This document shows, in pieces, positions 19,313-38,621 of a stretch of DNA of 64,000 bases. Where the stretch lies: IMG/VR virus record IMGVR_UViG_2695420475_000006; one strand, 5' to 3'. The notes below the pieces were generated by a model. The model searched no databases, was not told where the DNA came from, and saw only the letters and a program-made list of their open reading frames with translations. The position numbers were made by a program, and so were the translations under genes. Position 1 is the first letter of the stretch. The number at the start of each line of letters is the position of its first letter. The stretch comes from an uncultured virus (IMG/VR IMGVR_UViG_2695420475_000006). Lineage: Duplodnaviria > Heunggongvirae > Uroviricota > Caudoviricetes.

Positions 19313-19406
19313 CATCCTCGACGGGTGATGTGTCCCACGAGTTTTGGCGTTTGGTTCTTGTTACCCGGATGTCCGTTCTCAAATGATCTGTCGCANNNNN
19401 NNNNNN

Positions 19407-21128: not shown

Positions 21129-21490
21129 TGCCCATACGTCCCGAGAACCGCGACCGTTACCCCAAGGACTGGCCCGAGATCTCGCGCCGCATCCGTTTTG
21201 AGCGCGCCCAAGGCCGCTGCGAGTGTGAGGGCGAGTGCCTGCGCGGTACTCACCTCGACCGCTGCCCGAATGTCAACGGGCAGCCCGCATACGGCACCGG
21301 CAGCCGCGTCGTGCTGACCGTGGCGCACCTGAACCACACCCCCGAGGACTGCCGCGACGAGAACCTGCGTGCGATGTGCCAGGGCTGCCACCTGAACTAC
21401 GACCTAGAGCACCACGCGCAGACGCGCCAGCGAGCCCGCACGGCAGCTCTTGAGGCGCAGATGGATTCGATGTTCGAGGAGGTTTCGTGA
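21128..21490 (+). CDS. HNH-like protein (copy 2)
   Basis: Same protein as 12684-13046. Confidence 0.7.
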   Translation: MPIRPENRDRYPKDWPEISRRIRFERAQGRCECEGECLRGTHLDRCPNVNGQPAYGTGSRVVLTVAHLNHTPEDCRDENLRAMCQGCHLNYDLEHHAQTRQRARTAALEAQMDSMFEEVS

Positions 21491-21552
21491 GCTATAGACG
21501 AGCCTGCGTCGAGCGCGGGGGCGGTGTCGAGCCGGACGGCGTCTCGACCACC

Positions 21553-22131
21553 TCAGAACACGTGGTGACCCTTGCGAACTTCGGGAAGGTCCGATGGCGG
21601 AGGTGTTATGTCGGCCAACCGGAAGCGTCTGATCTGCTGCCGAGATCGCACTCCCCAATCCTTCTTCTTGCGAGTTGGTGGTGGCCACCAACTGATTTGA
21701 ATGCTCGCCTTATCCCACACGTCGAAGCTCTCTGCGTTGGCCGTGACGGATATAGAGTCCCCGGTTCGCAAAAGGGGAATTGGCTGATGGATCTCCAGTT
21801 GTCCGTGACCGGCAGCATTTTCCACAGAACCCGTCCACGGCTCCCGGCTCAGATGCTCTCCGGAGATGCGCACCTGATGTGCTGTTCCATCGCCAATGTT
21901 TTGAAAGATCACGGCTACTTTTGGTGCAGCAACCCTGTTGCCGACGCCGTCTTGCCCGCCACGTCGGACGAGTCGAATCGACCACTCCGCCTCTGTCCGG
22001 TCCTGATACCGCCACCAGATCGCGGTGGCAGTGGATGCCGCGGTAGACAGGGCGGTCGCAATCGCGGCGGCAAGACCTACACCGCCCCAGAATCCGACGT
22101 CGTGAAGTTGCTCTGCGGCGATCGTGATCAT
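21553..22131 (-). CDS. Single-pass membrane protein (copy 2)
   Basis: Same as 13109-13687. Confidence 0.6.
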   Translation of the reverse strand: MITIAAEQLHDVGFWGGVGLAAAIATALSTAASTATAIWWRYQDRTEAEWSIRLVRRGGQDGVGNRVAAPKVAVIFQNIGDGTAHQVRISGEHLSREPWTGSVENAAGHGQLEIHQPIPLLRTGDSISVTANAESFDVWDKASIQISWWPPPTRKKKDWGVRSRQQIRRFRLADITPPPSDLPEVRKGHHVF

Positions 22132-22368
22132 GGACGCAAAGGGTACGTCTTCAGTCGGGTGTTCGTAGTGAATCGCGATGGCGCCCTTCACGCCGCCCTT
22201 AGCCTCCTCCTTCACCTTGGCGGTGTCTGTGAGTGAGTTGTTGCCCCGGGTGCTGTTCACGTATGCCGAATGCCGCGCGCTGGGCCGCTGCACGTACTGC
22301 GGTTGGCATCCACCCACGCAGGGCCACCACCCGAATTGCCCACGCCCACAGAAACGGAAGGGATGTCG

Positions 22369-22659
22369 ATGAGTCGGAACTGGCAGGCCCGCGCAGTGTG
22401 CAGGGACGAAGACCCCGAGCTGTTCTTCCCTGACCCGTCCGACACTGTGACTGCGCGGCAAGCGCAGGCGGTGTGCGCGAAATGTCCTGTGAGATCGCGG
22501 TGCCGGGCCGCCGCCAGCGCGAGACGTGAACCGTACGGGATCTGGGGCGGCGTCAACCGCGAGCTGGACGCGGACAGGCGACGATCCGCCTTTTCACCCC
22601 CGACGAATGAAATCAGCACACCGCCCACCATCCCGACCACCGCAGAGGCAGCACAGTGA
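22369..22659 (+). CDS. whiB: WhiB-family regulator (copy 2)
   Basis: Same as 13925-14215. Confidence 0.85.
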   Translation: MSRNWQARAVCRDEDPELFFPDPSDTVTARQAQAVCAKCPVRSRCRAAASARREPYGIWGGVNRELDADRRRSAFSPPTNEISTPPTIPTTAEAAQ

Positions 22660-23789
22660 CGACCCGCGAGTACGCCAAAAACCTGTTCGCCCAATGGTCC
22701 GACGACGACTTCTGCAACCAACCGATCTTCGACAAGCTGTTCTTCCAGGTCCTCAACGGGCAGCGCGCCGTCAATGCCGCCGGCATCCAGCCGATCAACT
22801 TCACCCGCTGGCGCAAGGCCATGCGCGACGGCGACCACCTGCCCGCCGTGGGCGACCTGCAGGCCGCGCTGGTGCGCATGGAGCGCCGCGGCTTCGTGTT
22901 CACCGACGAGGACACGGGGGAGGTGCTGGTGCGTTCCCGGATCCGCCGCGACGAACTCGACAAGCAGCCCACCATGTTCCTGGCCGCGCTGCGCCTCCTG
23001 GCCGTCATCGACTCGCCCAAGTTCGCCGCCGTGCTCGCCGACGAGCTCGACCGTATGGACGTCCCGGAAGTGAAGGGGGACAAGGACTACGCCAAGCGTC
23101 TGCGCGACTCCCTCAACGACACCCATCGGGCGGCCCGTGCACACCTCAAGACCCTGGCCGACGGATACCCGCAGCCGTTCCCAGAACCATTCGACGGACT
23201 CACCGAGGGACCCTCCCAGGGACCCACCCCTAGACCCTCTACAGGACCCTCCGAAGGACCCACCTCGGGAGGGTCTACGGGACCCACCCCGTCACCTGGG
23301 GAAACAGGACCCACCCCGGGACCCTCCCCGAGACCCACCCAGGGACCCTCGGGTTCTGGTTCAGGTTCAGGTTCTCTCACCTTGGTAACTACTCAAGTGG
23401 GGGGTACGCGTGCGCGCGCACACGAGACCGCCGAACCCACGCCAGCACCAGACGAACCCCCCACACGATGCAAAGCCCACCGCGACAACCCCGACGCCAT
23501 CGAGGACAACTGCGGCCCCTGCGCCAACTTCCGCAAGGCACACGAACGCTGGACCGAACACCAAACACGCGCCCAAGCCCAAGCCAGGGCCGACACCCTC
23601 CACCAAGCCGCCCAACTCCGCGCCCACGCCATCGCCACCTGCGACCTATGCGACCCAGACGGCTACCTCCCCGGCACCAGCACCGTCTGCAACCACAACC
23701 CCACCCAAGCCGAAACCAACGCCCGCGGACGCCAACTCGTCCACGCCGCACTCCGCAGCCGAACCCAGCAGGAGACCGACGATGCGTGA
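22656..23789 (+). CDS. Putative replication initiator (copy 2)
   Basis: Same as 14212-15345. Confidence 0.6.
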   Translation: MTTREYAKNLFAQWSDDDFCNQPIFDKLFFQVLNGQRAVNAAGIQPINFTRWRKAMRDGDHLPAVGDLQAALVRMERRGFVFTDEDTGEVLVRSRIRRDELDKQPTMFLAALRLLAVIDSPKFAAVLADELDRMDVPEVKGDKDYAKRLRDSLNDTHRAARAHLKTLADGYPQPFPEPFDGLTEGPSQGPTPRPSTGPSEGPTSGGSTGPTPSPGETGPTPGPSPRPTQGPSGSGSGSGSLTLVTTQVGGTRARAHETAEPTPAPDEPPTRCKAHRDNPDAIEDNCGPCANFRKAHERWTEHQTRAQAQARADTLHQAAQLRAHAIATCDLCDPDGYLPGTSTVCNHNPTQAETNARGRQLVHAALRSRTQQETDDA

Positions 23790-24152
23790 CCCCTACGACC
23801 CCTGGGCCGACGAACGCACACAAGCCCAACCCGACCTCACCGACATCGCCCAAGCCGAAGCCATCCGCAACTGCCACCTCTGCGACACCCACGGCCACCG
23901 AGACGGACTCCCATGCCGCCACATCGACCACGCCGCAGCCGCCAAACGAGGACTCGCCACCATCCGCGCCCAAATGGGCTGGAACACCCCCACAGGCACA
24001 ACAACCCAACAAACCAGCCAAAAACCGCCCCACGACGCCACCAGCAGCCAAAAAACACCCCTGTAACTCACCCCCACCACCCAAAAACCCCGAACCATCA
24101 ACCACCCAGCCCAAACCCCAGCCAGCACCCCCAACAAAGAAAATCCACCACC

Positions 24153-24641
24153 ATGCCGCCAGTCATGAACCGCCAAGGCTCAAACCAACGCGCCGAAAAA
24201 GCCTGGCAGCTCCACATCGCCGGCCGAACCTGGCGCGAAGTCGCCGAGGTCACGGGCTTCAAATCGCCCCAATCGGCCCAGAAAGCCGCCATGGCATGGC
24301 TCAAGAAGAATCCGCCGTCCACCCTCGAAATAGCGCGCCGCGCGAACGGTGACGGCATCCGCCAGGTTCGCGGAATGCTGATGGAGACCATGGCGAAGGC
24401 CAAGGCCAAGGGGGAGCACCGCACCGTTTCTGAGCTGGGCCGCGCGGTACTCGACAGCTACGAGAAGGAGGCGAAGCTGTGGGGTCTGTTCGTCGTTGTG
24501 CCTGAGGAGGTCAACGTGAACGTTACGACCGCCGTGGCGGTGCTGGAGCGAGCGGAGGCCGAGCTACTGGCACTGGCTGCGGCCGGCCAGCCCGCGATCT
24601 CGGCGCAGCCCGTCATCGACGCCGAGGTGGTCGAGCCGTGA
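24153..24641 (+). CDS. TerS-like HTH protein (copy 2)
   Basis: Same as 15709-16197. Confidence 0.5.
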   Translation: MPPVMNRQGSNQRAEKAWQLHIAGRTWREVAEVTGFKSPQSAQKAAMAWLKKNPPSTLEIARRANGDGIRQVRGMLMETMAKAKAKGEHRTVSELGRAVLDSYEKEAKLWGLFVVVPEEVNVNVTTAVAVLERAEAELLALAAAGQPAISAQPVIDAEVVEP

Positions 24642-24982
24642 CCGCCCCGACCGAGCCCGTGCAGGATGCGATCAAGGCGGCGATGTTGGTCGCCAAGGAT
24701 GTGGCTGAGGGACGGCTGGACCCGGCCGCGCTGGACGCCGCAGTGGTGGCCGAGTGCCGCGAGCTGTTCGCGTTCGTGTCCGGGCCCGGAGATCCGTTGT
24801 GGGACATCCACGTCGAGGTGGCCCGCCAGGTGCTCGCCCTCGATGGCATCCCGGTCGACGAGCTGGCCGAGTGGCTGGCCGTGACCCGCCGGGCGCAGGG
24901 CGTCGAAGCGCCGGCCGATTCGTGGATGGCGCGCGTACTGGAGCAGCTGGCCGACGAGGACGACGAGGCCGAGCCAGTCTAA
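24638..24982 (+). CDS. Hypothetical protein (copy 2)
   Basis: Same as 16194-16538. Confidence 0.6.
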   Translation: MTAPTEPVQDAIKAAMLVAKDVAEGRLDPAALDAAVVAECRELFAFVSGPGDPLWDIHVEVARQVLALDGIPVDELAEWLAVTRRAQGVEAPADSWMARVLEQLADEDDEAEPV

Positions 24983-25125
24983 CTGGGGTATACCCGTGCC
25001 GGACCCTTTATCGATCCCAGATTCTTGCCCGCGAAATGCGCAGATGGTCTCTAAAAAGGGTGGTTGACGGATTGTTAGACGGCGATCTAATGTGGTCTAG
25101 AACCTAATTAGAAAAGGAGGGGTTC

Positions 25126-25395
25126 ATGACCACCATCGCGGATGACCTTGCCGCCGACCTCGGCAGCGACTTCCAAGTCACCACCACCCCGCAGGGCTGG
25201 ACCGAAGTGCGCGTCCGACCCGAACGCGCGATCGGCGACAAGCTCGACTTGGCCCGCATCGTCACCGCCGACAACACCTATCGCCTGATTCACCTGACCC
25301 ACAACGAGGTCTGCAAAGGCGAGGCGACATTCGTCGGCTCGATGCTCGGGTTCCTGCCGGCCGTGGTGCGTGAGTTTTGCGAAGTGGTGTTCTGA
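25126..25395 (+). CDS. Hypothetical protein (copy 2)
   Basis: Same as 16682-16951. Confidence 0.6.
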   Translation: MTTIADDLAADLGSDFQVTTTPQGWTEVRVRPERAIGDKLDLARIVTADNTYRLIHLTHNEVCKGEATFVGSMLGFLPAVVREFCEVVF

Positions 25396-25397
25396 CC

Positions 25398-25763
25398 GTG
25401 GCTGACGGCGACAAGCTGCACGCCGCGATCGGCGCCCGCACTACCGCGCAACTGCTGTCCTACCTGGCGCACCTGGAGACCATGACCGTCACGCCAGAGA
25501 CGCGTCTGGTGGGTGCGTTGATCGCTGACACCATCACCGAGCGCGAGGGCATTGACGACGCGCTGGACGAGGTGTTCGCGGACCAGACGTTCAACGGCAC
25601 CTATCTCGACGCGATCCGCGCCGCGCTGGCCGACCGGCGCGTCCGGCACCGGCGCACTGGCGCCGAGGGCATGTTGCTCAACGAGCGCGGCCGGCCCATC
25701 GCGATCGTCCACTGGGACAGCCAGCCGCTACCGACGTGGGCCGACTGGTCCGACCTCGAATGA
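25398..25763 (+). CDS. Hypothetical protein (copy 2)
   Basis: Same as 16954-17319. Confidence 0.55.
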   Translation: MADGDKLHAAIGARTTAQLLSYLAHLETMTVTPETRLVGALIADTITEREGIDDALDEVFADQTFNGTYLDAIRAALADRRVRHRRTGAEGMLLNERGRPIAIVHWDSQPLPTWADWSDLE

Positions 25764-26131
25764 CGAAGGGATGATGACCCGATGAGCGACTCGAAGACGG
25801 GGCAGCAGGTCGGCTACGTNNNNNNNNNNNGTCGGCGCGGTGGTGCTGGAACCGTTCGCCGGATCGGGCACGACTGCCGAGGCGTGCATCCTCGAGGACC
25901 GGCGTTGCATCGCGATTGAACGTGAGGCCGAGTACCTGCCGTTGATCGTGTCCCGGCTACGCAAGCCGGTGCAGCAAGGGCTATTCGGGTTAGGGGCGGG
26001 CGCATGACCCGCACCCCCGAGAGCACCAAGGCATACCAGGCCGGTCTGTGCGTGGACTGCAAGACCGAGCCGCGCAGCGCCGGTCGGCCACGGTGCGACA
26101 AATGCCATACAAAATTCAGAAGGGGTGAGTG

Positions 26132-27115
26132 ATGGGCGACAAGACCGGCATCGAATGGGCCGATGCCACATGGAATCCGGTAACCGGTTGCGACAAGGTG
26201 TCTCCCGGCTGCGATCACTGCTACGCCGAGACGTTCGCAGAGCGTTGGCGCGGCACGCGGGGGCACTATTTCGAGACCGGATTCGATGTGCAGCTGCGAC
26301 CGGACAAGCTCGACTTGCCGCTGCGCTGGACCAAGCCTCGCCGCATCTTCGTAAATTCAATGTCAGATCTATTCCACGACAAGGTGCCTGACGAGTACAT
26401 CGCCCGCGTGTTCGCCGTCATGGCGCTCGCACCGCAGCACACGTTCCAGCTGCTCACTAAGCGTCACGGGCGGATGCGGACACTGTTGCGAGATGGCGAG
26501 TTTCAACAGCAGGTCTACGACGCATGGGGACAGCTGGAGATGCCGAAGGGGCGCCCGTCGATGGAGGACTGGCCGTGGTCCGGTTGGCCACTACCCAACG
26601 TCTGGCTGGGTGTCAGCGCCGAGGATCAGAAGCGCGCCGACCTCCGCATCCCCGCGCTGCTGGACACCCCGGCCGCCGCACGGTTCGTCAGTGCCGAGCC
26701 GCTTCTCGGGCCGATCGACCTACATGGTGACCCGATCGGGAAAGACTCGGTTTTCTGGATCGGGCATCTGGACTGGGTGATCGTCGGCGGCGAATCTGGC
26801 TCCGGCGCAAGGCCAATGCACCCAGACTGGGCGCGCTCACTGCGCGACCAATGCCTAGCCGCTGGCGTGCCGTTCCTGTTCAAACAGTGGGGCGAATGGC
26901 GTTGGACGCGCGAGGCCGACGACTACGAGTATGAGCGAGCGCACGGCGATCTCTACCCCAACGCCAAATGGGAAACGGTCTCACCTGACGGCGTGATCGC
27001 CGCCGATAACATCCCGCATCCGGGGTACGCCACCATGCAGCGCGTCGGCAAGAAGCGCGCCGGGCGCGAGCTGGACGGGCGCACATGGGACCAATACCCC
27101 GAGGTGGTGCGCTGA
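26132..27115 (+). CDS. DUF5131 family protein (copy)
   Basis: Same as 19708-20691. Confidence 0.85.
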   Translation: MGDKTGIEWADATWNPVTGCDKVSPGCDHCYAETFAERWRGTRGHYFETGFDVQLRPDKLDLPLRWTKPRRIFVNSMSDLFHDKVPDEYIARVFAVMALAPQHTFQLLTKRHGRMRTLLRDGEFQQQVYDAWGQLEMPKGRPSMEDWPWSGWPLPNVWLGVSAEDQKRADLRIPALLDTPAAARFVSAEPLLGPIDLHGDPIGKDSVFWIGHLDWVIVGGESGSGARPMHPDWARSLRDQCLAAGVPFLFKQWGEWRWTREADDYEYERAHGDLYPNAKWETVSPDGVIAADNIPHPGYATMQRVGKKRAGRELDGRTWDQYPEVVR

Positions 27116-27552
27116 TGGCCACACGTAAGTACATCTACCGCGTGGTTGTCGACGAGTGGCCGACCGAGGACGGCATGCCCTTCATCGACCAGGACTGGCG
27201 CTGGTGGGAGCAGATCGTCGACTACTTCCACAATCCCGAGGGTGATGACCCGTCGCCCGCCTGGCTGCCCGATATCACCGAGTACCTGGAAGACCAGGGT
27301 GACGAATGGACGCCGGCGGGTTGGGGCAACAAGCCGCGATTCACCCGCCTTGTGTGCGAACCCGGAGACGAGCCCGACTACCCGAACGGATACCGAGGTT
27401 ACGACGACCAACCTGTGATCGCCGTGCCCATCGCTCCTGCCCGCCGGTTCATGCAACGCGCCCAACCGGACGCGGCGGCAAAACAGCTGCGCGAGTGGGG
27501 ATGCAAAGCACACGTGGAACGCGCTGCCCTTGGTGACTGGGAGGCGGCCTGA
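27115..27552 (+). CDS. Hypothetical protein (mosaic copy)
   Basis: Allele D except for allele A 3' end. Confidence 0.6.
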   Translation: MATRKYIYRVVVDEWPTEDGMPFIDQDWRWWEQIVDYFHNPEGDDPSPAWLPDITEYLEDQGDEWTPAGWGNKPRFTRLVCEPGDEPDYPNGYRGYDDQPVIAVPIAPARRFMQRAQPDAAAKQLREWGCKAHVERAALGDWEAA

Positions 27553-27914
27553 TGCCCATACGTCCCGAGAACCGCGACCGTTACCCCAAGGACTGGCCCG
27601 AGATCTCGCGCCGCATCCGTTTTGAGCGCGCCCAAGGCCGCTGCGAGTGTGAGGGCGAGTGCCTGCGCGGTACTCACCTCGACCGCTGCCCGAATGTCAA
27701 CGGGCAGCCCGCATACGGCACCGGCAGCCGCGTCGTGCTGACCGTGGCGCACCTGAACCACACCCCCGAGGACTGCCGCGACGAGAACCTGCGTGCGATG
27801 TGCCAGGGCTGCCACCTGAACTACGACCTAGAGCACCACGCGCAGACGCGCCAGCGAGCCCGCACGGCAGCTCTTGAGGCGCAGATGGATTCGATGTTCG
27901 AGGAGGTTTCGTGA
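27552..27914 (+). CDS. HNH-like protein (copy 3)
   Basis: Same as 12684-13046. Confidence 0.7.
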   Translation: MPIRPENRDRYPKDWPEISRRIRFERAQGRCECEGECLRGTHLDRCPNVNGQPAYGTGSRVVLTVAHLNHTPEDCRDENLRAMCQGCHLNYDLEHHAQTRQRARTAALEAQMDSMFEEVS

Positions 27915-27976
27915 GCTATAGACGAGCCTGCGTCGAGCGCGGGGGCGGTGTCGAGCCGGACGGCGTCTCGACCACC

Positions 27977-28555
27977 TCAGAACACGTGGTGACCCTTGCG
28001 AACTTCGGGAAGGTCCGATGGCGGAGGTGTTATGTCGGCCAACCGGAAGCGTCTGATCTGCTGCCGAGATCGCACTCCCCAATCCTTCTTCTTGCGAGTT
28101 GGTGGTGGCCACCAACTGATTTGAATGCTCGCCTTATCCCACACGTCGAAGCTCTCTGCGTTGGCCGTGACGGATATAGAGTCCCCGGTTCGCAAAAGGG
28201 GAATTGGCTGATGGATCTCCAGTTGTCCGTGACCGGCAGCATTTTCCACAGAACCCGTCCACGGCTCCCGGCTCAGATGCTCTCCGGAGATGCGCACCTG
28301 ATGTGCTGTTCCATCGCCAATGTTTTGAAAGATCACGGCTACTTTTGGTGCAGCAACCCTGTTGCCGACGCCGTCTTGCCCGCCACGTCGGACGAGTCGA
28401 ATCGACCACTCCGCCTCTGTCCGGTCCTGATACCGCCACCAGATCGCGGTGGCAGTGGATGCCGCGGTAGACAGGGCGGTCGCAATCGCGGCGGCAAGAC
28501 CTACACCGCCCCAGAATCCGACGTCGTGAAGTTGCTCTGCGGCGATCGTGATCAT
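27977..28555 (-). CDS. Single-pass membrane protein (copy 3)
   Basis: Same as 13109-13687. Confidence 0.6.
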   Translation of the reverse strand: MITIAAEQLHDVGFWGGVGLAAAIATALSTAASTATAIWWRYQDRTEAEWSIRLVRRGGQDGVGNRVAAPKVAVIFQNIGDGTAHQVRISGEHLSREPWTGSVENAAGHGQLEIHQPIPLLRTGDSISVTANAESFDVWDKASIQISWWPPPTRKKKDWGVRSRQQIRRFRLADITPPPSDLPEVRKGHHVF

Positions 28556-28792
28556 GGACGCAAAGGGTACGTCTTCAGTCGGGTGTTCGTAGTGAATCGC
28601 GATGGCGCCCTTCACGCCGCCCTTAGCCTCCTCCTTCACCTTGGCGGTGTCTGTGAGTGAGTTGTTGCCCCGGGTGCTGTTCACGTATGCCGAATGCCGC
28701 GCGCTGGGCCGCTGCACGTACTGCGGTTGGCATCCACCCACGCAGGGCCACCACCCGAATTGCCCACGCCCACAGAAACGGAAGGGATGTCG

Positions 28793-29083
28793 ATGAGTCG
28801 GAACTGGCAGGCCCGCGCAGTGTGCAGGGACGAAGACCCCGAGCTGTTCTTCCCTGACCCGTCCGACACTGTGACTGCGCGGCAAGCGCAGGCGGTGTGC
28901 GCGAAATGTCCTGTGAGATCGCGGTGCCGGGCCGCCGCCAGCGCGAGACGTGAACCGTACGGGATCTGGGGCGGCGTCAACCGCGAGCTGGACGCGGACA
29001 GGCGACGATCCGCCTTTTCACCCCCGACGAATGAAATCAGCACACCGCCCACCATCCCGACCACCGCAGAGGCAGCACAGTGA
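28793..29083 (+). CDS. whiB: WhiB-family regulator (copy 3)
   Basis: Same as 13925-14215. Confidence 0.85.
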   Translation: MSRNWQARAVCRDEDPELFFPDPSDTVTARQAQAVCAKCPVRSRCRAAASARREPYGIWGGVNRELDADRRRSAFSPPTNEISTPPTIPTTAEAAQ

Positions 29084-30213
29084 CGACCCGCGAGTACGCC
29101 AAAAACCTGTTCGCCCAATGGTCCGACGACGACTTCTGCAACCAACCGATCTTCGACAAGCTGTTCTTCCAGGTCCTCAACGGGCAGCGCGCCGTCAATG
29201 CCGCCGGCATCCAGCCGATCAACTTCACCCGCTGGCGCAAGGCCATGCGCGACGGCGACCACCTGCCCGCCGTGGGCGACCTGCAGGCCGCGCTGGTGCG
29301 CATGGAGCGCCGCGGCTTCGTGTTCACCGACGAGGACACGGGGGAGGTGCTGGTGCGTTCCCGGATCCGCCGCGACGAACTCGACAAGCAGCCCACCATG
29401 TTCCTGGCCGCGCTGCGCCTCCTGGCCGTCATCGACTCGCCCAAGTTCGCCGCCGTGCTCGCCGACGAGCTCGACCGTATGGACGTCCCGGAAGTGAAGG
29501 GGGACAAGGACTACGCCAAGCGTCTGCGCGACTCCCTCAACGACACCCATCGGGCGGCCCGTGCACACCTCAAGACCCTGGCCGACGGATACCCGCAGCC
29601 GTTCCCAGAACCATTCGACGGACTCACCGAGGGACCCTCCCAGGGACCCACCCCTAGACCCTCTACAGGACCCTCCGAAGGACCCACCTCGGGAGGGTCT
29701 ACGGGACCCACCCCGTCACCTGGGGAAACAGGACCCACCCCGGGACCCTCCCCGAGACCCACCCAGGGACCCTCGGGTTCTGGTTCAGGTTCAGGTTCTC
29801 TCACCTTGGTAACTACTCAAGTGGGGGGTACGCGTGCGCGCGCACACGAGACCGCCGAACCCACGCCAGCACCAGACGAACCCCCCACACGATGCAAAGC
29901 CCACCGCGACAACCCCGACGCCATCGAGGACAACTGCGGCCCCTGCGCCAACTTCCGCAAGGCACACGAACGCTGGACCGAACACCAAACACGCGCCCAA
30001 GCCCAAGCCAGGGCCGACACCCTCCACCAAGCCGCCCAACTCCGCGCCCACGCCATCGCCACCTGCGACCTATGCGACCCAGACGGCTACCTCCCCGGCA
30101 CCAGCACCGTCTGCAACCACAACCCCACCCAAGCCGAAACCAACGCCCGCGGACGCCAACTCGTCCACGCCGCACTCCGCAGCCGAACCCAGCAGGAGAC
30201 CGACGATGCGTGA
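29080..30213 (+). CDS. Putative replication initiator (copy 3)
   Basis: Same as 14212-15345. Confidence 0.6.
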   Translation: MTTREYAKNLFAQWSDDDFCNQPIFDKLFFQVLNGQRAVNAAGIQPINFTRWRKAMRDGDHLPAVGDLQAALVRMERRGFVFTDEDTGEVLVRSRIRRDELDKQPTMFLAALRLLAVIDSPKFAAVLADELDRMDVPEVKGDKDYAKRLRDSLNDTHRAARAHLKTLADGYPQPFPEPFDGLTEGPSQGPTPRPSTGPSEGPTSGGSTGPTPSPGETGPTPGPSPRPTQGPSGSGSGSGSLTLVTTQVGGTRARAHETAEPTPAPDEPPTRCKAHRDNPDAIEDNCGPCANFRKAHERWTEHQTRAQAQARADTLHQAAQLRAHAIATCDLCDPDGYLPGTSTVCNHNPTQAETNARGRQLVHAALRSRTQQETDDA

Positions 30214-30576
30214 CCCCTACGACCCCTGGGCCGACGAACGCACACAAGCCCAACCCGACCTCACCGACATCGCCCAAGCCGAAGCCATCCGCAACTGCCA
30301 CCTCTGCGACACCCACGGCCACCGAGACGGACTCCCATGCCGCCACATCGACCACGCCGCAGCCGCCAAACGAGGACTCGCCACCATCCGCGCCCAAATG
30401 GGCTGGAACACCCCCACAGGCACAACAACCCAACAAACCAGCCAAAAACCGCCCCACGACGCCACCAGCAGCCAAAAAACACCCCTGTAACTCACCCCCA
30501 CCACCCAAAAACCCCGAACCATCAACCACCCAGCCCAAACCCCAGCCAGCACCCCCAACAAAGAAAATCCACCACC

Positions 30577-31065
30577 ATGCCGCCAGTCATGAACCGCCAA
30601 GGCTCAAACCAACGCGCCGAAAAAGCCTGGCAGCTCCACATCGCCGGCCGAACCTGGCGCGAAGTCGCCGAGGTCACGGGCTTCAAATCGCCCCAATCGG
30701 CCCAGAAAGCCGCCATGGCATGGCTCAAGAAGAATCCGCCGTCCACCCTCGAAATAGCGCGCCGCGCGAACGGTGACGGCATCCGCCAGGTTCGCGGAAT
30801 GCTGATGGAGACCATGGCGAAGGCCAAGGCCAAGGGGGAGCACCGCACCGTTTCTGAGCTGGGCCGCGCGGTACTCGACAGCTACGAGAAGGAGGCGAAG
30901 CTGTGGGGTCTGTTCGTCGTTGTGCCTGAGGAGGTCAACGTGAACGTTACGACCGCCGTGGCGGTGCTGGAGCGAGCGGAGGCCGAGCTACTGGCACTGG
31001 CTGCGGCCGGCCAGCCCGCGATCTCGGCGCAGCCCGTCATCGACGCCGAGGTGGTCGAGCCGTGA
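30577..31065 (+). CDS. TerS-like HTH protein (copy 3)
   Basis: Same as 15709-16197. Confidence 0.5.
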   Translation: MPPVMNRQGSNQRAEKAWQLHIAGRTWREVAEVTGFKSPQSAQKAAMAWLKKNPPSTLEIARRANGDGIRQVRGMLMETMAKAKAKGEHRTVSELGRAVLDSYEKEAKLWGLFVVVPEEVNVNVTTAVAVLERAEAELLALAAAGQPAISAQPVIDAEVVEP

Positions 31066-31406
31066 CCGCCCCGACCGAGCCCGTGCAGGATGCGATCAAG
31101 GCGGCGATGTTGGTCGCCAAGGATGTGGCTGAGGGACGGCTGGACCCGGCCGCGCTGGACGCCGCAGTGGTGGCCGAGTGCCGCGAGCTGTTCGCGTTCG
31201 TGTCCGGGCCCGGAGATCCGTTGTGGGACATCCACGTCGAGGTGGCCCGCCAGGTGCTCGCCCTCGATGGCATCCCGGTCGACGAGCTGGCCGAGTGGCT
31301 GGCCGTGACCCGCCGGGCGCAGGGCGTCGAAGCGCCGGCCGATTCGTGGATGGCGCGCGTACTGGAGCAGCTGGCCGACGAGGACGACGAGGCCGAGCCA
31401 GTCTAA
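31062..31406 (+). CDS. Hypothetical protein (copy 3)
   Basis: Same as 16194-16538. Confidence 0.6.
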   Translation: MTAPTEPVQDAIKAAMLVAKDVAEGRLDPAALDAAVVAECRELFAFVSGPGDPLWDIHVEVARQVLALDGIPVDELAEWLAVTRRAQGVEAPADSWMARVLEQLADEDDEAEPV

Positions 31407-31549
31407 CTGGGGTATACCCGTGCCGGACCCTTTATCGATCCCAGATTCTTGCCCGCGAAATGCGCAGATGGTCTCTAAAAAGGGTGGTTGACGGATTGTT
31501 AGACGGCGATCTAATGTGGTCTAGAACCTAATTAGAAAAGGAGGGGTTC

Positions 31550-31819
31550 ATGACCACCATCGCGGATGACCTTGCCGCCGACCTCGGCAGCGACTTCCAA
31601 GTCACCACCACCCCGCAGGGCTGGACCGAAGTGCGCGTCCGACCCGAACGCGCGATCGGCGACAAGCTCGACTTGGCCCGCATCGTCACCGCCGACAACA
31701 CCTATCGCCTGATTCACCTGACCCACAACGAGGTCTGCAAAGGCGAGGCGACATTCGTCGGCTCGATGCTCGGGTTCCTGCCGGCCGTGGTGCGTGAGTT
31801 TTGCGAAGTGGTGTTCTGA
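31550..31819 (+). CDS. Hypothetical protein (copy 3)
   Basis: Same as 16682-16951. Confidence 0.6.
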   Translation: MTTIADDLAADLGSDFQVTTTPQGWTEVRVRPERAIGDKLDLARIVTADNTYRLIHLTHNEVCKGEATFVGSMLGFLPAVVREFCEVVF

Positions 31820-31821
31820 CC

Positions 31822-32187
31822 GTGGCTGACGGCGACAAGCTGCACGCCGCGATCGGCGCCCGCACTACCGCGCAACTGCTGTCCTACCTGGCGCACCTGG
31901 AGACCATGACCGTCACGCCAGAGACGCGTCTGGTGGGTGCGTTGATCGCTGACACCATCACCGAGCGCGAGGGCATTGACGACGCGCTGGACGAGGTGTT
32001 CGCGGACCAGACGTTCAACGGCACCTATCTCGACGCGATCCGCGCCGCGCTGGCCGACCGGCGCGTCCGGCACCGGCGCACTGGCGCCGAGGGCATGTTG
32101 CTCAACGAGCGCGGCCGGCCCATCGCGATCGTCCACTGGGACAGCCAGCCGCTACCGACGTGGGCCGACTGGTCCGACCTCGAATGA
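31822..32187 (+). CDS. Hypothetical protein (copy 3)
   Basis: Same as 16954-17319. Confidence 0.55.
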   Translation: MADGDKLHAAIGARTTAQLLSYLAHLETMTVTPETRLVGALIADTITEREGIDDALDEVFADQTFNGTYLDAIRAALADRRVRHRRTGAEGMLLNERGRPIAIVHWDSQPLPTWADWSDLE

Positions 32188-32205
32188 CGAAGGGATGATG
32201 ACCCG

Positions 32206-32784
32206 ATGAGCGACTCGAAGACGGGGCAGCAGGTCGGCTACGTGCGGGTGTCCACCCTCGACCAGAACACCGAACGCCAGCTCGACGGCATCGAGGTTGA
32301 TAAGCGGTTCGAGGACAAGGCCAGTGGCAAGGACACTGCGCGGCCGGCGCTCACCGAGGCGCTCGGCTACGTACGCGACGGCGACACCCTGGTGGTTCAT
32401 TCCATGGATCGGCTTGCCCGCTCGCTGGAGGATCTACGGCGCACTGTGCGGGAGCTGACCGCTCGGGGGGTGCGGGTCCACTTCGTCAAGGAGAATCTGA
32501 CGTTCACGGGCGACGATTCGCCGATGTCCACGCTGCTGCTGTCGATGTTGGGCGCGGTGGCTGAGTTCGAGCGGTCGATGATCCGGGAGCGCCAGCGTGA
32601 GGGCATCGAGCTCGCGAAGGCTAAGGGCGTCTATAAGGGCCGCAAGCCGGCGCTGACCGATGAGCAGACCGTCGAGGTGTTGGAGCGGCTGGCCGGCGGC
32701 GAGCATCCAGCCGATTTAGCGCGCGAGTTTGGGGTGTCGCGTGCGACTGTCTACAACGTGCGGGCCCGTGCCTCAGAGGGCTAG
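32206..32784 (+). CDS. Small serine recombinase (copy)
   Basis: Same as 17338-17916. Confidence 0.9.
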   Translation: MSDSKTGQQVGYVRVSTLDQNTERQLDGIEVDKRFEDKASGKDTARPALTEALGYVRDGDTLVVHSMDRLARSLEDLRRTVRELTARGVRVHFVKENLTFTGDDSPMSTLLLSMLGAVAEFERSMIRERQREGIELAKAKGVYKGRKPALTDEQTVEVLERLAGGEHPADLAREFGVSRATVYNVRARASEG

Positions 32785-33060
32785 TTCTGGGGGTGGTGTT
32801 GTGAAGAGGGCCGAGACGGTGTGCCAGCTGGAATATTCCTTGTGGCGACCAGGTGAGTGACCGTTAGCGCTCACCAACACCCATTGTCCGTGCGGGAGGA
32901 AGTAGGTCCGCCGGTCCCCGTCGCTCCAGATTCCAAGCACGCCGCCGGGCAGGAAGGCGTAAGCGTCTTCGTCAGAGAACTCTTCGAACGGTTCCGCACC
33001 GTCCTGGGGGTTGGGCGCAGCGAACGTTGAACCCACGGGGTATGTCACTCGGAAGCTCAT
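32773..33060 (-). CDS. Hypothetical protein (copy)
   Basis: Same as 17905-18192. Confidence 0.5.
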   Translation of the reverse strand: MSFRVTYPVGSTFAAPNPQDGAEPFEEFSDEDAYAFLPGGVLGIWSDGDRRTYFLPHGQWVLVSANGHSPGRHKEYSSWHTVSALFTTPPPELAL

Positions 33061-33338
33061 GGTGCCGAACCCTAGTTGCGACTGGCCTGGGTTGATCCGA
33101 CACACCCCCCGCGCTTACCGGGGAAAAATTATTTTCTGGGCTACTGTCTCTTCCTGTCCCCAGCTAGTCAACAGGTTTGTCCACACGGGCGGTGGCTGTT
33201 GATCTGCTGTTTCTGGATTCATCCACAGTTTCGGCATCGAAAATCGGCCGCCGTGCGTGGTTCTTAGATTCGGGTGTTTTTGCAGTATTTCTGCGCTTGC
33301 GGCGTGACCTGCGTTACTTACACCGATAAGATTTAGCT

Positions 33339-33493
33339 GCTTGGAAGGAGCCCCGGGCCGGAATGCCTGGGGGTCAGGCGTCACGGCCTGGGACCCCTAA
33401 TCCCTGTTTGCGGCAGGATTTGAAGGTATCAGGATTGGTCACGACTCGCCAAAAAAGTCTGCGAGTCGTGGGCTGGTGCCGTCACTTCCAACG
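33339..33493 (+). ncRNA. Putative structured ncRNA (copy)
   Basis: Same as 18471-18625. Confidence 0.5.
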
Positions 33494-33529
33494 TTTGCGT
33501 ATGGCGAATGACCTGCGCAAAGGAAGGAA

Positions 33530-34123
33530 ATGGCAATGATTGGTAACAAGATCGCTCGCGGCGCGGCTGCGGGCGTGTTGGCGGTCGGCGCGTTCGCGCT
33601 GACCGCGTGCGTCGGTGACAAATCCGAGGCCAGTCCGGCGGTCGCGCAGTTGGGTTCCCCTGTGAAGGTCAGCGGCTCGTCGGGCTGGAGTGGTGACGGG
33701 GATTATTCCGGCACCGTCACTGTCGACCCTGGTCCCGCGTGTGCGCTCGATGATGACGGTCGGGTCGTCGTGTTCCATGTTCGGGCTGGTGCTGAGAAAG
33801 GCTCGGTCCCGACTGGCAACTGGAGGTTGCAGACCGGGAATGCCGACCCTGTGTCGAATGGTCACTTCGATCTTGGCGATTTCGCTGGGCCGTTGATTGG
33901 GTCGCCGGTTGATACGGACAAGGCGTGGGGTGATATCGCGTTCCATCTGCCCCCGAAGACCGTTCCGACCCGATTGCAGCTTTTCGCGGGTGACGATCGG
34001 TACAGCAACTCTCCGGGGGTTGCGCTTGCCCAGTGGGCGACGCCGATGGAGGTCAAAGCATCGGTGTATTGCTCGGGGCCGCTGCAGGCCGCAGTCAAGC
34101 GTGAGACGCCTGTGACGAACTGA
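33530..34123 (+). CDS. Lipoprotein (copy)
   Basis: Same as 18662-19255. Confidence 0.75.
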   Translation: MAMIGNKIARGAAAGVLAVGAFALTACVGDKSEASPAVAQLGSPVKVSGSSGWSGDGDYSGTVTVDPGPACALDDDGRVVVFHVRAGAEKGSVPTGNWRLQTGNADPVSNGHFDLGDFAGPLIGSPVDTDKAWGDIAFHLPPKTVPTRLQLFAGDDRYSNSPGVALAQWATPMEVKASVYCSGPLQAAVKRETPVTN

Positions 34124-34459
34124 TCGTGTGAGGAATCCCCCGCGGACGGCGTGGGGAAGATGCCGTCCCCGGGGGATTTTCATCCTCGACGGGTGATGTG
34201 TCCCACGAGTTTTGGCGTTTGGTTCTTGTTACCCGGATGTCCGTTCTCAAATGATCTGTCGCAGATTATTTGACAAAAGCCGCTACTGAACAGGGTTGCG
34301 ACAGATTAAGGAGAACTCTTTTCACCGTTGATGGCCCAGCGGTTCTCATTTGATCTGTCACAAGTCCACTCGAGCGGGCTCGCGTCGCCAAGGTCACTGG
34401 CTGCCACTGGAACAGCCAGCTCGATTCGTGCCGGCGATCGCCGGCTTGTTCGTCAAAGC

Positions 34460-34533
34460 TGACTGCCACTGTCAGGGGGTGATGAACCCGAATCCCTTTC
34501 GGCGTTGAACCACTCCACGATGCCTTGTGCCAT
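34460..34533 (-). pseudogene. cspA: Frameshifted, truncated cold-shock protein remnant
   Basis: Minus strand reads MAQGIVEWFNAE then, after shift, GFGFITP (CspA RNP1 motif WFNAEKGFGFI). Confidence 0.75.
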
Positions 34534-34605
34534 GCGATAACTACTCAAAAGCGGGGGTCGACTTTCGATCCCGGGTCTGCGATCCGGGCGGCCCGGTGAA
34601 GGTCA

Positions 34606-35073
34606 TCACCCTGTTCTGCGTGCTGCCGCCAATGGTTCGATTGACAGCAATGCTGTTGGGCTACATGTGCTGCCCGGTTCGGCAGCTCTAGTCATCACGT
34701 CGTGGGCATGATGGGGGTCGGTCATCGGAGGGACAACCAGCAGTACTAGTCGACGATGGTCTAGATCGCTGATGTAGATGGTGTCTGGCCTCTGGTAACG
34801 GTACCCGTCTAACGACACCATACGACCCCAGTAGCACAGTTGTTTCGGCGCTGTGTCCCATTCGGTGATGCGGTAGATCACGCGCTTGATGGTCCCTAAC
34901 CGGGAAGCTACAGCATCCAAAACTGCTGGTAAGTCTTGATTTAGGTCCTGTGAGCGCGGCCACCATGCGCCGTCGATATGTCCGCTCCAATCACCATCGG
35001 GCTTTAGTCGAAGACGAACCGAGTCGTCGCAGTCGAGTGTCTCTACCGCCGCCGAAGTGACCGCGCTGATCAT
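34606..35073 (-). CDS. DUF5994 family protein
   Basis: RLRLKP...GHIDGAWWPRS.DL...LLVVPP motif. Confidence 0.8.
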   Translation of the reverse strand: MISAVTSAAVETLDCDDSVRLRLKPDGDWSGHIDGAWWPRSQDLNQDLPAVLDAVASRLGTIKRVIYRITEWDTAPKQLCYWGRMVSLDGYRYQRPDTIYISDLDHRRLVLLVVPPMTDPHHAHDVMTRAAEPGSTCSPTALLSIEPLAAARRTG

Positions 35074-35495
35074 GATGTCGTCGGTCCGGCTGATTGCGAC
35101 TTAAGCACCCGGTCGGATCTACCGCCAAAATCGCATTGATCCTCTGCTTCCGAATGCGATTTCCTGGACGGGGGGACAATCAGCAGGGTCAAATGTGCGC
35201 CGTTCGTCCCTCGAACGCTAATAGTGCTGGCGGGCTGCAGAAGTGACCAACCCAGGTGAACCAGACGGTTGAGGAAAAGCACTCTCCGCGAGGAGGGTGC
35301 CCATTCCCCAGCTCGATAGGTAATCCGATCAATGGGACCCAAATCGAGGCTAAGTCGCGTAAGCAACGGCAGAACCTCGACCGATAGATCCTTAGATCGT
35401 GGGCACCAAGCTCCATCGGCGTATCCAGTTTTCGGATCCAGATGAAGGCGCAGAGCCGACTGGAGTGGTTGTGGACAAAATATCTGATGCGTCAT
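35070..35495 (-). CDS. DUF5994 family protein (paralog)
   Basis: LRLHL...GYADGAWCPRS.DL...LLIVPP; AGGAG RBS; ATGA overlap with paralog. Confidence 0.75.
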   Translation of the reverse strand: MTHQIFCPQPLQSALRLHLDPKTGYADGAWCPRSKDLSVEVLPLLTRLSLDLGPIDRITYRAGEWAPSSRRVLFLNRLVHLGWSLLQPASTISVRGTNGAHLTLLIVPPSRKSHSEAEDQCDFGGRSDRVLKSQSAGPTTS

Positions 35496-36534
35496 CAGAC
35501 GCTCCTAGCCTCGGCCCGTAATCGGTGCCGAATAGTTCGACGGTGCCGCGCCCATGAGTAGGCAGGTACTAGATATCCGTCTACGTCCAGGATACTCCGG
35601 CTTGGACAGCCCAGTGGGTGATTGAGAGTCCTTGGAACGATTTTGCGCATGCCACGCACTACTGGCGGACCTCCCTAACCGGACACACTCAACAGCGTCA
35701 ACAGCTACAGAAACAGCCTCACGAGAACCTCAGAAGCATCCCGGCACACTGAAAAGAACCCGATCGATCCCACCGATCTGGCATCAGCGGCGACCCGATG
35801 CGGCTCCCTACAAGCAGGCCAGCAGATAGCAGCGGGGCGACACAACAAGCGGCACATCACTCTCCCCAGTTGCGGGTGCCGCCGTACCCTTCTTCGGCTG
35901 GTAATAGGAAGAAAAGAGAAATCAGCTTGTGCTTCCTCAGGTCGCGTGTCGTTGCCAGCAGGTGCTCGACACGCGGTTGCGACAGATTAGATGAGAATGC
36001 GACAGCCCATTTGAGAACGGACACCGGACGTAGCGGCTAGCGTTGCGCCGCTGCGGCAGGGTGCTGCGGCGGAGAGGGGTGATGGATGCCTGATAGCGAT
36101 TTGACGAAAGAGACTCGGGAGGCGTTGTTGACGGCGATCAAAGCGGACGCCGAGGGGCGGCAGGGGAGCGTCTCCATCATTTGGCTGCGGCATTTGCGCT
36201 GACTGTGGGCGCCAACATTCACAAGTTGCCGGGCTACCTGCCGCCGTCATCGTCGTAGTTGGTCCGGAGATGGGGCTGGCTCGGTACTGAGCTGAGCTGG
36301 CCCCACCCCCCTGGCGAATCTCTTCGCGGAAAGCAGGGGGAGCTACCTTTCCGCAGGTCGCGCCCAGTGCGACGGCAAAGAATCAAGATAGTTTTCTGAA
36401 TCAGCTTTCGCCCCAGTTCAACGTGCTTTACCATGTTCCCCATGGCCTCCGGGGACCTCGATTCAGGCAACCACTACAAGGCATACTGGTGCCGTGTACT
36501 GCAACACCAGCCGNNNNNNNNNNNNNNNNNNNNN

Positions 36535-36711
36535 GTCGGCGCGGTGGTGCTGGAACCGTTCGCCGGATCGGGCACGACTGCCGAGGCGTGCATCCTCGAG
36601 GACCGGCGTTGCATCGCGATTGAACGTGAGGCCGAGTACCTGCCGTTGATCGTGTCCCGGCTACGCAAGCCGGTGCAGCAAGGGCTATTCGGGTTAGGGG
36701 CGGGCGCATGA
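36535..36711 (+). CDS. 3' fragment of N6A/N4C DNA methyltransferase (cut by gap)
   Basis: VLEPFAGSGTT motif. Confidence 0.75.
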   Translation, partial: VGAVVLEPFAGSGTTAEACILEDRRCIAIEREAEYLPLIVSRLRKPVQQGLFGLGAGA

Positions 36712-36835
36712 CCCGCACCCCCGAGAGCACCAAGGCATACCAGGCCGGTCTGTGCGTGGACTGCAAGACCGAGCCGCGCAGCGCCGGTCGGCCACGGTGC
36801 GACAAATGCCATACAAAATTCAGAAGGGGTGAGTG

Positions 36836-37819
36836 ATGGGCGACAAGACCGGCATCGAATGGGCCGATGCCACATGGAATCCGGTAACCGGTTGCGACAA
36901 GGTGTCTCCCGGCTGCGATCACTGCTACGCCGAGACGTTCGCAGAGCGTTGGCGCGGCACGCGGGGGCACTATTTCGAGACCGGATTCGATGTGCAGCTG
37001 CGACCGGACAAGCTCGACTTGCCGCTGCGCTGGACCAAGCCTCGCCGCATCTTCGTAAATTCAATGTCAGATCTATTCCACGACAAGGTGCCTGACGAGT
37101 ACATCGCCCGCGTGTTCGCCGTCATGGCGCTCGCACCGCAGCACACGTTCCAGCTGCTCACTAAGCGTCACGGGCGGATGCGGACACTGTTGCGAGATGG
37201 CGAGTTTCAACAGCAGGTCTACGACGCATGGGGACAGCTGGAGATGCCGAAGGGGCGCCCGTCGATGGAGGACTGGCCGTGGTCCGGTTGGCCACTACCC
37301 AACGTCTGGCTGGGTGTCAGCGCCGAGGATCAGAAGCGCGCCGACCTCCGCATCCCCGCGCTGCTGGACACCCCGGCCGCCGCACGGTTCGTCAGTGCCG
37401 AGCCGCTTCTCGGGCCGATCGACCTACATGGTGACCCGATCGGGAAAGACTCGGTTTTCTGGATCGGGCATCTGGACTGGGTGATCGTCGGCGGCGAATC
37501 TGGCTCCGGCGCAAGGCCAATGCACCCAGACTGGGCGCGCTCACTGCGCGACCAATGCCTAGCCGCTGGCGTGCCGTTCCTGTTCAAACAGTGGGGCGAA
37601 TGGCGTTGGACGCGCGAGGCCGACGACTACGAGTATGAGCGAGCGCACGGCGATCTCTACCCCAACGCCAAATGGGAAACGGTCTCACCTGACGGCGTGA
37701 TCGCCGCCGATAACATCCCGCATCCGGGGTACGCCACCATGCAGCGCGTCGGCAAGAAGCGCGCCGGGCGCGAGCTGGACGGGCGCACATGGGACCAATA
37801 CCCCGAGGTGGTGCGCTGA
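36836..37819 (+). CDS. DUF5131 (Gp37/Gp68) family protein
   Basis: Three-Cys motif CDKVSPGCDHC; probably the native copy. Confidence 0.9.
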   Translation: MGDKTGIEWADATWNPVTGCDKVSPGCDHCYAETFAERWRGTRGHYFETGFDVQLRPDKLDLPLRWTKPRRIFVNSMSDLFHDKVPDEYIARVFAVMALAPQHTFQLLTKRHGRMRTLLRDGEFQQQVYDAWGQLEMPKGRPSMEDWPWSGWPLPNVWLGVSAEDQKRADLRIPALLDTPAAARFVSAEPLLGPIDLHGDPIGKDSVFWIGHLDWVIVGGESGSGARPMHPDWARSLRDQCLAAGVPFLFKQWGEWRWTREADDYEYERAHGDLYPNAKWETVSPDGVIAADNIPHPGYATMQRVGKKRAGRELDGRTWDQYPEVVR

Positions 37820-38256
37820 TGGCCACACGTAAGTACATCTACCGCGTGGTTGTCGACGAGTGGCCGACCGAGGACGGCATGCCCTTCATCGACCAGGACT
37901 GGCGCTGGTGGGAGCAGATCGTCGACTACTTCCACAATCCCGAGGGTGATGACCCGTCGCCCGCCTGGCTGCCCGATATCACCGAGTACCTGGAAGACCA
38001 GGGTGACGAATGGACGCCGGCGGGTTGGGGCAACAAGCCGCGATTCACCCGCCTTGTGTGCGAACCCGGAGACGAGCCCGACTACCCGAACGGATACCGA
38101 GGTTACGACGACCAACCTGTGATCGCCGTGCCCATCGCTCCTGCCCGCCGGTTCATGCAACGCGCCCAACCGGACGCGGCGGCAAAACAGCTGCGCGAGT
38201 GGGGATGCAAAGCACACGTGGAACGCGCTGCCCTTGGTGATTGGGAGGTGGCCTGA
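37819..38256 (+). CDS. Hypothetical protein, allele D of shared gene
   Basis: Diverged paralog of 12247-12684. Confidence 0.7.
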   Translation: MATRKYIYRVVVDEWPTEDGMPFIDQDWRWWEQIVDYFHNPEGDDPSPAWLPDITEYLEDQGDEWTPAGWGNKPRFTRLVCEPGDEPDYPNGYRGYDDQPVIAVPIAPARRFMQRAQPDAAAKQLREWGCKAHVERAALGDWEVA

Positions 38257-38621
38257 TGCCCAAGCGAATCCAGCGCAAGCGTACCGCGGGCTGGCGGATG
38301 CCCGAGGGGGCTATCTACGTCGGGCGGCCGAGCCAGTGGGGCAACCCGTACGTTGCGGGTCCAGGTCGACCACGAATGCCATGGCTGCCAGAGGGAACCG
38401 TTCTGACCGTTGAGCAGACCGTCGCCTGCTATGCCGACATGGTTCGTGGCGGTGGCCCGAACATCAACGGCGACAAGTGGCTTACATCGCAAGTCGGTGT
38501 AATTCGCTACCTCCTAGCTGGCCGCGACCTGGCGTGCTGGTGCCCGCTCGACCAGCCATGCCATGCCGACGTGCTGCTGGAAATCGCCAACTCCACAACC
38601 GAATCGGAGGTAACGGCGTAA
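38256..38621 (+). CDS. DUF4326 family protein
   Basis: YVGRPS.WGNPY, LAGRDLACWCP...CHADVL. Confidence 0.85.
   Translation: MPKRIQRKRTAGWRMPEGAIYVGRPSQWGNPYVAGPGRPRMPWLPEGTVLTVEQTVACYADMVRGGGPNINGDKWLTSQVGVIRYLLAGRDLACWCPLDQPCHADVLLEIANSTTESEVTA

Follow-up and report, generated by a model that had tools for sequence, protein, structure and literature searches.

A 1786-bp mini element was found at positions 34238-36023 of a 64,000-nucleotide stretch of DNA from an uncultured virus of the Caudoviricetes (IMG/VR record IMGVR_UViG_2695420475_000006; hereafter, the whole stretch is called the window). This mini element is almost certainly a deletion derivative of a Tn7-like transposon. It represents a decayed copy of a known, Tn7-type transposon and not a new kind of system. 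The window belongs to a prophage of Mycobacterium abscessus: of 41 phage records matching 32000-38300, 30 came from Mycobacterium prophages or phages. Transposons of the ancestral type were found at full length in M. abscessus prophages designated MabA1.

The limits of the element were determined by direct readout of the sequence and confirmed using a repeat finder. Exact copies of CCGGA bracket a sequence running from TGTCCG to CGGACA. At the left joint, the flank TTACCCGGA is followed by the element sequence TGTCCGTTCTCAAATGATCTGTCGCA; at the right joint, the element ends in TGCGACAGCCCATTTGAGAACGGACA and the flank resumes with CCGGACGTAGCGG. The terminal inverted repeats (IRs) measure 26 nt and are complementary at 24 of 26 positions (92%). 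Length, IR match and exact 5-bp target-site duplication (TSD) had been put forward in a first-pass annotation of the window, and all three were reproduced. Both the TGT/ACA tips of the IRs and the 5-bp TSD on either side are as in Tn7-like transposons. Allowing up to three mismatches, the 26-mer IR occurred three times in the window (19370, 34238, 35998), compared with 0.00 expected from 100 shuffles. The repeated sites of about 20 bp, also noted earlier, were recovered as five matches to a 20-bp motif (19376, 34244, 34343, 35978, 35998) versus 0.01 expected. In addition, an inverted middle site (34294-34315) was retrieved by the repeat finder as direct repeat D2, paired with the R2 site. These predicted transposase-binding sites would form the asymmetric array of a Tn7-like element, with L1-L3 spaced across 125 bp and R1-R2 abutting. 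The G+C content of the element was 56.7%, versus 63-65% for its flanks. All features are listed in Table 1.

Table 1. Features of the mini element and blocks aligned to the full-length transposon of prophiGD15-1 (L003).
Feature	Window position	Strand	L003 position	Remarks
Left TSD copy, CCGGA	34233-34237			5-mer single in empty sites of prophi88-1 and prophiT46-2
Left terminal IR, TGT tip; includes predicted site L1 (34244-34263)	34238-34263	+		same as left ends of prophiGD15-1 and prophiGD20-1
Predicted site L2, opposite in orientation to L1 and L3	~34294-34315	-		one base shorter than in 3/3 aligned relatives
Predicted site L3	34343-34362	+		repeat finder (D1), motif scan, end alignment
Junction of ~2.15-kb deletion relative to prophiGD15-1	34397-34402			6-bp microhomology CTGGCT
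Cold-shock protein gene remnant	34463-34546	-		start MAQGIVEWFNAE, then frameshift and stop
DUF5994 gene, 155 aa, intact	34606-35073	-		E 9.2e-35
DUF5994 paralogue, 141 aa, intact	35070-35495	-		E 6.1e-24; Pfam score equals that of the prophiGD15-1 copy
Junction of ~4.75-kb deletion (R3, tnsA, tnsB, tnsC, tniQ)	35967-35969			3-bp microhomology
Predicted site R2	35978-35997	-		motif scan, end alignment
Right terminal IR, ACA tip; includes predicted site R1 (35998-36017)	35998-36023	-		GG where 5/5 relatives have AC
Right TSD copy, CCGGA	36024-36028
Second left-IR copy	19370-19395	+		same left flank and CCGGA; ended by 11-N scaffold gap
Left end block	34236-34402		14081-13914
Cargo blocks	34397-34438, 34435-35619, 35615-35969		11773-10102
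Right end block	35967-36026		5356-5296

Empty-site alleles, which the first-pass annotation had proposed to look for in related strains, were observed in two related prophages. In prophi88-1, the left flank of the element aligned up to position 6253 of the locus (L006) and the right flank from 6249 onwards, the 5-base overlap being a single CCGGA. Similarly, prophiT46-2 was collinear across an uninterrupted insertion site with one CCGGA. Both thus carry the empty-site allele of the mini element. The nearest virus record (G001) starts on the right-hand side of the insertion, on which it was uninformative. The window, a scaffold, does contain N gaps and redundant blocks, which speaks for an assembly artefact. 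Nevertheless, that the IRs and the 5-mer arose by such an artefact or by chance, with no mobile element involved, is hardly conceivable: expected chance matches amounted to 0.00-0.01. This reading was rejected on the empty sites and on the recovery of the same structure in independent contigs of two sequencing runs (X1 and X5) and in another IMG/VR record (G003).

Full-length relatives were identified by searching phage records with the element. Five records were obtained, the only real relatives among them being prophiGD15-1 (MW584180) and prophiGD20-1 (MW584158), which were also the only ones to match the interior of the element well (~98%). In these two, the matching blocks were spread across 3.6-4.0 kb and adjoined four genes annotated as TnsA, transposase, DNA-binding protein and RNA-binding protein. 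The complete elements measured 8,780 bp in prophiGD15-1 (TSD ACCGA, left-to-right orientation) and 8,452 bp in prophiGD20-1 (TSD ACAGT). Their ends were nearly identical to those of the mini element, with R1-R3 located within 77 bp, and DUF5994 cargo was shared. An element with the same ends plus a transposase, the other item that had been proposed for checking, therefore exists in related M. abscessus prophages, complete with tnsA, tnsB, tnsC and a probable tniQ.

The prophiGD20-1 transposon was published in 2021 as an 8,452-bp element with imperfect IRs of ~25 bp and a 5-bp duplication (Dedrick et al. 2021, PMC8092298), and the length measured here agrees exactly with this figure. The passages of that paper covered here also report a comparable insertion in prophiGD15-1, situated 25 bp away, and describe how the transposon is lost when the phage grows lytically (PMC8092298). 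The prophiGD20-1 transposon is mentioned in passing in PMC9934374. A family name is absent from the passages covered of both papers, TnsA being named by the GenBank annotation. Neither these passages nor the literature searches made yielded any mention of a mini derivative.

The four genes of the prophiGD15-1 element were compared with protein family and structure databases. The product of gene 1 matched NCBIfam model NF033179 (TnsA_like_Actin) with an E value of 3e-84 and 281.7 bits (cut-off 110); Pfam and PDB sequence searches with the TnsA-like protein of the relatives found nothing. Gene 2 (tnsB) matched Mu-transpos_C and, below threshold, rve; in the PDB, it matched TnsB chains best, at E values of 2e-8 or weaker and over ~100 residues in the top rows. 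Gene 3 (tnsC) matched TniB/AAA_22 (TniB 56.9 bits, cut-off 22.4), and was nearest to ShCAST TnsC, with an E value of 3.4e-5. Gene 4 of the parent is, judging from its sequence, a probable TniQ gene, with a weak Pfam TniQ match of 22.2 bits (cut-off 27) and a PDB search without match. Homologues of the parent TnsB (E ≤ 1e-20) were found in 196 actinobacterial plasmid records, and the match spanned 80% or more of the protein in 109 of these. The parent transposon family is large, already modelled, and widespread on plasmids as well as prophages. The plasmid records came from Streptomyces (119), Rhodococcus (42), Mycobacterium (8) and others, the homologue usually lying beside ATP-binding or TnsA-like genes.

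Since TnsC matches Pfam TniB and a resolvase gene is present at 32206-32784, a defective member of Tn5053/Tn402 (TniA/B/Q/R; 'res hunters' drawn by a serine recombinase gene) was also considered, together with IS21. Ends, TSD length and repeated sites are typical of those families too. They have no TnsA, however, and the TnsA-like endonuclease of the relatives exceeds the NCBIfam cut-off. Moreover, TnsB reached 26.5 bits with the IS21 model (cut-off 160) and 75 bits with that of IS481 (cut-off 224), its best solved relatives are TnsB proteins, and the full-length copies are situated in an HNH/MRE11 region and not at res sites. Membership of such a family is accordingly very improbable, and the Tn5053-like 'res-hunter' idea was dropped because the parent element carries a TnsA-like gene.

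Alignment of the window element with prophiGD15-1 revealed collinearity in five blocks of 97-99.7% identity, with left end, cargo and right end in the same order. Relative to prophiGD15-1, ~4.75 kb (L003 ~5354-10101) is missing, comprising R3, tnsA, tnsB, tnsC and tniQ to 8 bp beyond its stop. Also missing are ~2.15 kb of cargo, containing two further DUF5994 genes and a DUF6307 gene, and two small stretches of ~39 and ~57 bp. The junctions of the large deletions display microhomology of 3 bp (TCG) and 6 bp (CTGGCT), respectively, which is a signature of illegitimate recombination and not of transposase action. From the aligned ends, three lesions of the window copy became apparent: R3 was lost, R1 reads GG instead of the AC of 5/5 relatives, and L2 is one base short compared with 3/3 relatives (X15 and X17 have an extra C after 34310). 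When the 64-kb window was searched by tblastn with TnsA, TnsB, TnsC and TniQ of the relatives, none was found (best E 0.3), in line with the earlier statement that the element lacks a transposase. TnsB, TnsA and TnsC/TniB, the gene content of a Tn7-like transposon, are thus encoded by the full-length relatives and not by the window copy, which is therefore a derivative and not an autonomous Tn7-like member. The earlier assignment to a TnsB/Tn7-type, non-autonomous element is supported by the tns genes of the relatives and by this gene loss.

In summary of the comparison with prophiGD20-1 and prophiGD15-1, the left end is the same over the 26-bp IR, the R1-R2 arrangement and 5-bp TSD are retained, and the DUF5994 pair and cold-shock remnant are shared at 97-99.7%, in prophages of the same species. 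In contrast, the window copy is without R3, the four transposition genes and ~2.15 kb of cargo, has altered R1 and L2 sites, and occupies an unrelated intergenic position in another type of prophage.

The following course of events is proposed. The ancestor would have been an actinobacterial Tn7-like transposon encoding a TnsA-like endonuclease, a TnsB DDE transposase, a TnsC/TniB ATPase and a probable TniQ. It would have arrived by cut-and-paste at the intergenic site of another prophage, a 5-bp staggered cut of the target giving rise to the CCGGA duplication. This transposition mechanism is inferred by analogy with Tn7, the element displaying only its footprints. Next, microhomology-mediated deletions in place would have removed R3, tnsA, tnsB, tnsC, tniQ and part of the cargo. 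The remainder would be a fixed passenger island, made up of the DUF5994 pair and the cold-shock remnant and passed on vertically as part of the prophage. Nothing contradicting the identity as a Tn7-like deletion derivative was found. That a complete element inserted first and was then deleted in place is, on balance, the likelier order of events.

Mobility of the transposon family is clear: in 5/5 cases where both flanks were visible, separate insertions with 5-bp TSDs were obtained (window, CCGGA; prophiGD15-1, ACCGA; prophiGD20-1, ACAGT; Mycobacteroides franklinii CV002, ACGTA; sequencing run X17, ACCAG). A scan for the exact IR detected one locus (M. franklinii) in genome contigs, which comprised one genome per species, and five loci from four contigs among viral contigs. 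In IMG/VR contig L024, the right end lies beside the L003-equivalent position 5065 in the opposite orientation, and the prophiGD15-1 site is uninterrupted there; in contigs L022 and L023, the right end lies beside L003-equivalent position 4979. The MRE11/HNH stretch of MabA1 prophages has thus been hit independently at least three times (prophiGD15-1, prophiGD20-1, L024) and possibly four. Full-length copies occupied three to four positions, in both orientations, within ~350 bp (L003 ~4979-5330) of this region. The clustering suggests either a strong regional target preference or that insertion is tolerated only there. No target motif common to the CCGGA site and the MabA1 region was detected by blastn or tblastx with an E value better than 0.05.

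Copies of the mini form were sought in other records and sequencing runs. IMG/VR record G003 carries it, with 99.98% identity across 5,276 bp, and its left flank is 100% identical to the first redundant block of the window over 7,396 bp. Among the 24 listed sequencing runs, 14 runs from five studies contained the mini form, as all 206 words sampled from the element and its 100-bp flanks were present; several of these 14 may represent the source itself or clones related to it, and hence not be independent. Flanks were identical in all mini-form copies found (window, G003, 14 runs), and within this limited search space no second site with other flanks or another TSD was found for the mini form. 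In each of X1 and X5, 33500-36513 is covered by one contig that differs at a single base. No second copy of ends or cargo and no helper was seen in the contigs of these two runs, bearing in mind that contigs can drop sequence; the same method did detect a 57-bp right-end piece in X17. Contigs of X15-X19 contained only about one third of the sampled words, X15 and X17 representing full-length-type relatives at other sites and not the mini form. Metagenome contigs were also scanned for the deletion junction, with 0 matches in a limited search space.

A decayed copy of the family was present in M. franklinii CV002 (L005 5856-10026). Its right end and TSD ACGTA are intact, tnsA and an 80-residue piece of tnsB remain, and L1 is broken. 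Like the mini element, it has R1 and R2 at the right end and a 5-bp TSD and has lost transposition genes; unlike it, this copy keeps tnsA, the tnsB fragment and R1-R3, and carries other cargo without the DUF5994 pair inside. In-place decay does occur in this transposon family, because the M. franklinii copy is gutted yet keeps its TSD. The different cargo of this copy includes an open reading frame (ORF) with a weak PHROG match to a DNA methyltransferase. When a prophage or plasmid setting of this copy was looked for, a Pfam family was assigned to 2/22 ORFs and weak PHROGs matches to 6/21 ORFs, and megablast of the region against plasmids gave no match.

Deletion in place is favoured over mobilisation in trans because every mini copy shares the same flanks, no helper was seen in X1 or X5, and decay of this kind is exemplified by M. 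franklinii. Mobilisation in trans had been inferred in the first-pass annotation and was not demonstrated. It would imply that the deletions happened elsewhere first, after which the 1.8-kb mini form was moved by TnsA, TnsB, TnsC and TniQ of a full-length copy in the same cell, the helper being lost later. Such a course is unlikely, though a serious contender: a clean 5-bp TSD is retained, and full-length potential helpers with near-identical ends circulate in prophages of the same species. It requires one event more, namely helper loss, than deletion in place, and all mini copies found occupy one site. The loss of R3 and the alterations of R1 and L2 relative to all aligned relatives also argue against it. 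Several points weigh against deletion in place. A sister strain whose CCGGA site holds a full-length element was not found, which makes the ancestor at this position hypothetical. Both termini and five of the six predicted sites are kept, and the mini form could have moved with a helper. The helper search rests on the contigs of two runs, from which sequence may have been dropped. Finally, full-length copies cluster in one MabA1 region and the mini copy lies at an unrelated site without detectable similarity, which would fit a separate movement in trans. The mini element is probably immobile at present, because no helper was seen in the strains examined and lesions affect three of the six ancestral predicted transposase-binding sites. 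A broader view, in which the family is a specialist hitch-hiker on mycobacterial prophages and the mini form a trans-mobilisable 'natural mini-Tn7' spreading DUF5994 genes between prophages, is considered doubtful.

The cargo was analysed separately and corresponded to the two DUF5994 paralogues and decayed cold-shock gene annotated before, as judged from Pfam matches and the broken cold-shock frame. The remnant resembles cold-shock genes at the DNA level, its frame being broken after ~12 codons in the six-frame translation. A plasmid search with the element returned 34 records, each matching solely the cold-shock part of ~60-85 bp and mostly under genes annotated as cold-shock protein. For the product of the gene at 34606-35073, 761 of 895 candidates were DUF5994 homologues at E ≤ 1e-5. 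DUF5994 proteins are common in Actinomycetota, and the closest named homologues are chromosomal in Mycobacteroides (M. chelonae, 82%; M. franklinii, 72%). The M. franklinii chromosome (L019 4815-5806, G002:C10) harbours a DUF5994 pair adjoining universal-stress-protein, GNAT acetyltransferase and alpha/beta-hydrolase genes. Because this pair is 73-76% identical to the transposon cargo at the DNA level, the cargo looks like a captured host gene pair, a chromosomal pair of the M. franklinii type being its likely source.

Regarding DUF5994 function, an NCBIfam search gave nothing, a protein atlas returned only DUF5994 clusters, and the term was found in no paper by literature search. An AlphaFold model of the 34606-35073 product (predicted local distance difference test score 78) had no PDB match at E ≤ 0.001 using Foldseek. 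With VIA-align, the best Z score of the model was 5.7, which is under the noise guide of the tool and may at most be a weak lead; nearly all top rows (Z 4-5.7) were HK97-fold capsid proteins or encapsulins.

Tn7 of E. coli has TGT/ACA tips, a 5-bp TSD, spaced left sites, packed right sites and a TnsA+TnsB transposase working with TnsC. The mini element is similar in tips, TSD and site layout, and its parent in encoding TnsA and TnsB with TnsC; by analogy, the element may work, or may once have worked, like Tn7. It also resembles laboratory mini-Tn7 in consisting of ends and cargo without transposition genes. Differences from Tn7 include distant sequence, one TniQ-like selector in the parent instead of TnsD plus TnsE, an inverted middle left site, no attTn7-like single target seen, and a natural origin by deletion. 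Defective Tn402 derivatives are class 1 integrons in which the tni module is deleted; mobilisation in trans has been reported for them. Similarly to the mini element, they keep IRs of 25-26 bp and the 5-bp TSD, have internally deleted transposition genes and persist as cargo carriers; they belong, however, to another family (no TnsA, resolvase-based) with other hosts and resistance cargo.

The element would illustrate how an actinobacterial Tn7-like transposon decays to a fixed cargo island within the prophage of a species of clinical relevance. It offers a clean natural structure of mini-Tn7 type in which predicted binding sites, deletion junctions and empty site are all mapped. Insertion and junction are usable as lineage markers, because they are unchanged in 14 runs of five studies. 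The full-length family, with its ends defined, could interest builders of mycobacterial transposition tools. How such elements are understood to work is unaltered by the finding.

Promoter and terminator scans of 33900-36500 yielded nothing exceeding shuffles. A 192-aa serine recombinase of the resolvase/invertase type is encoded 1.45 kb upstream of the insertion, at 32206-32784 (+). Related prophages have retained this gene, for which no tie to the transposon emerged.

Three N runs, all of them true gaps, interrupt the scaffold that forms the window (19396-19406, 25820-25830 and 36514-36534). Region 12239-19395 is ~99.6% identical to 27106-34263 and region 19407-25819 is ~99.8% identical to 25831-32243, while 36535-38262 repeats the start of the redundant blocks. 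Overall, 12239-38262 is laid out like a tandem triplication of a prophage segment of ~9-11 kb. All three N runs lead into one and the same sequence, which lies within a truncated DNA-methylase gene. The redundancy could stem from a true duplication, from two related prophages or from a scaffolding artefact. The first block ends at 19395, immediately ahead of the 11-N run, as had been noted. This stop had been taken as a sign of a multi-copy IR, an interpretation that was not supported: the duplicated block ends in an N gap, and in G003 this left flank continues into the complete mini element. Because the 268 bases preceding the break, CCGGA included, equal those of the insertion site in the duplicated block, the IR at 19370-19395 is the same insertion rather than a solo IR elsewhere.

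In G003, the sequence past window position 36513 differs from what the scaffold joins on. The ORF starting at 36433 runs on in G003 into Pro/Gly-rich, membrane-protein-like sequence (L021 1-321); in the window, it is joined across the gap to a C-terminal fragment of the methylase. Because G003 continues this ORF differently, the scaffold misrepresents the gene on the right-hand side of the insertion.

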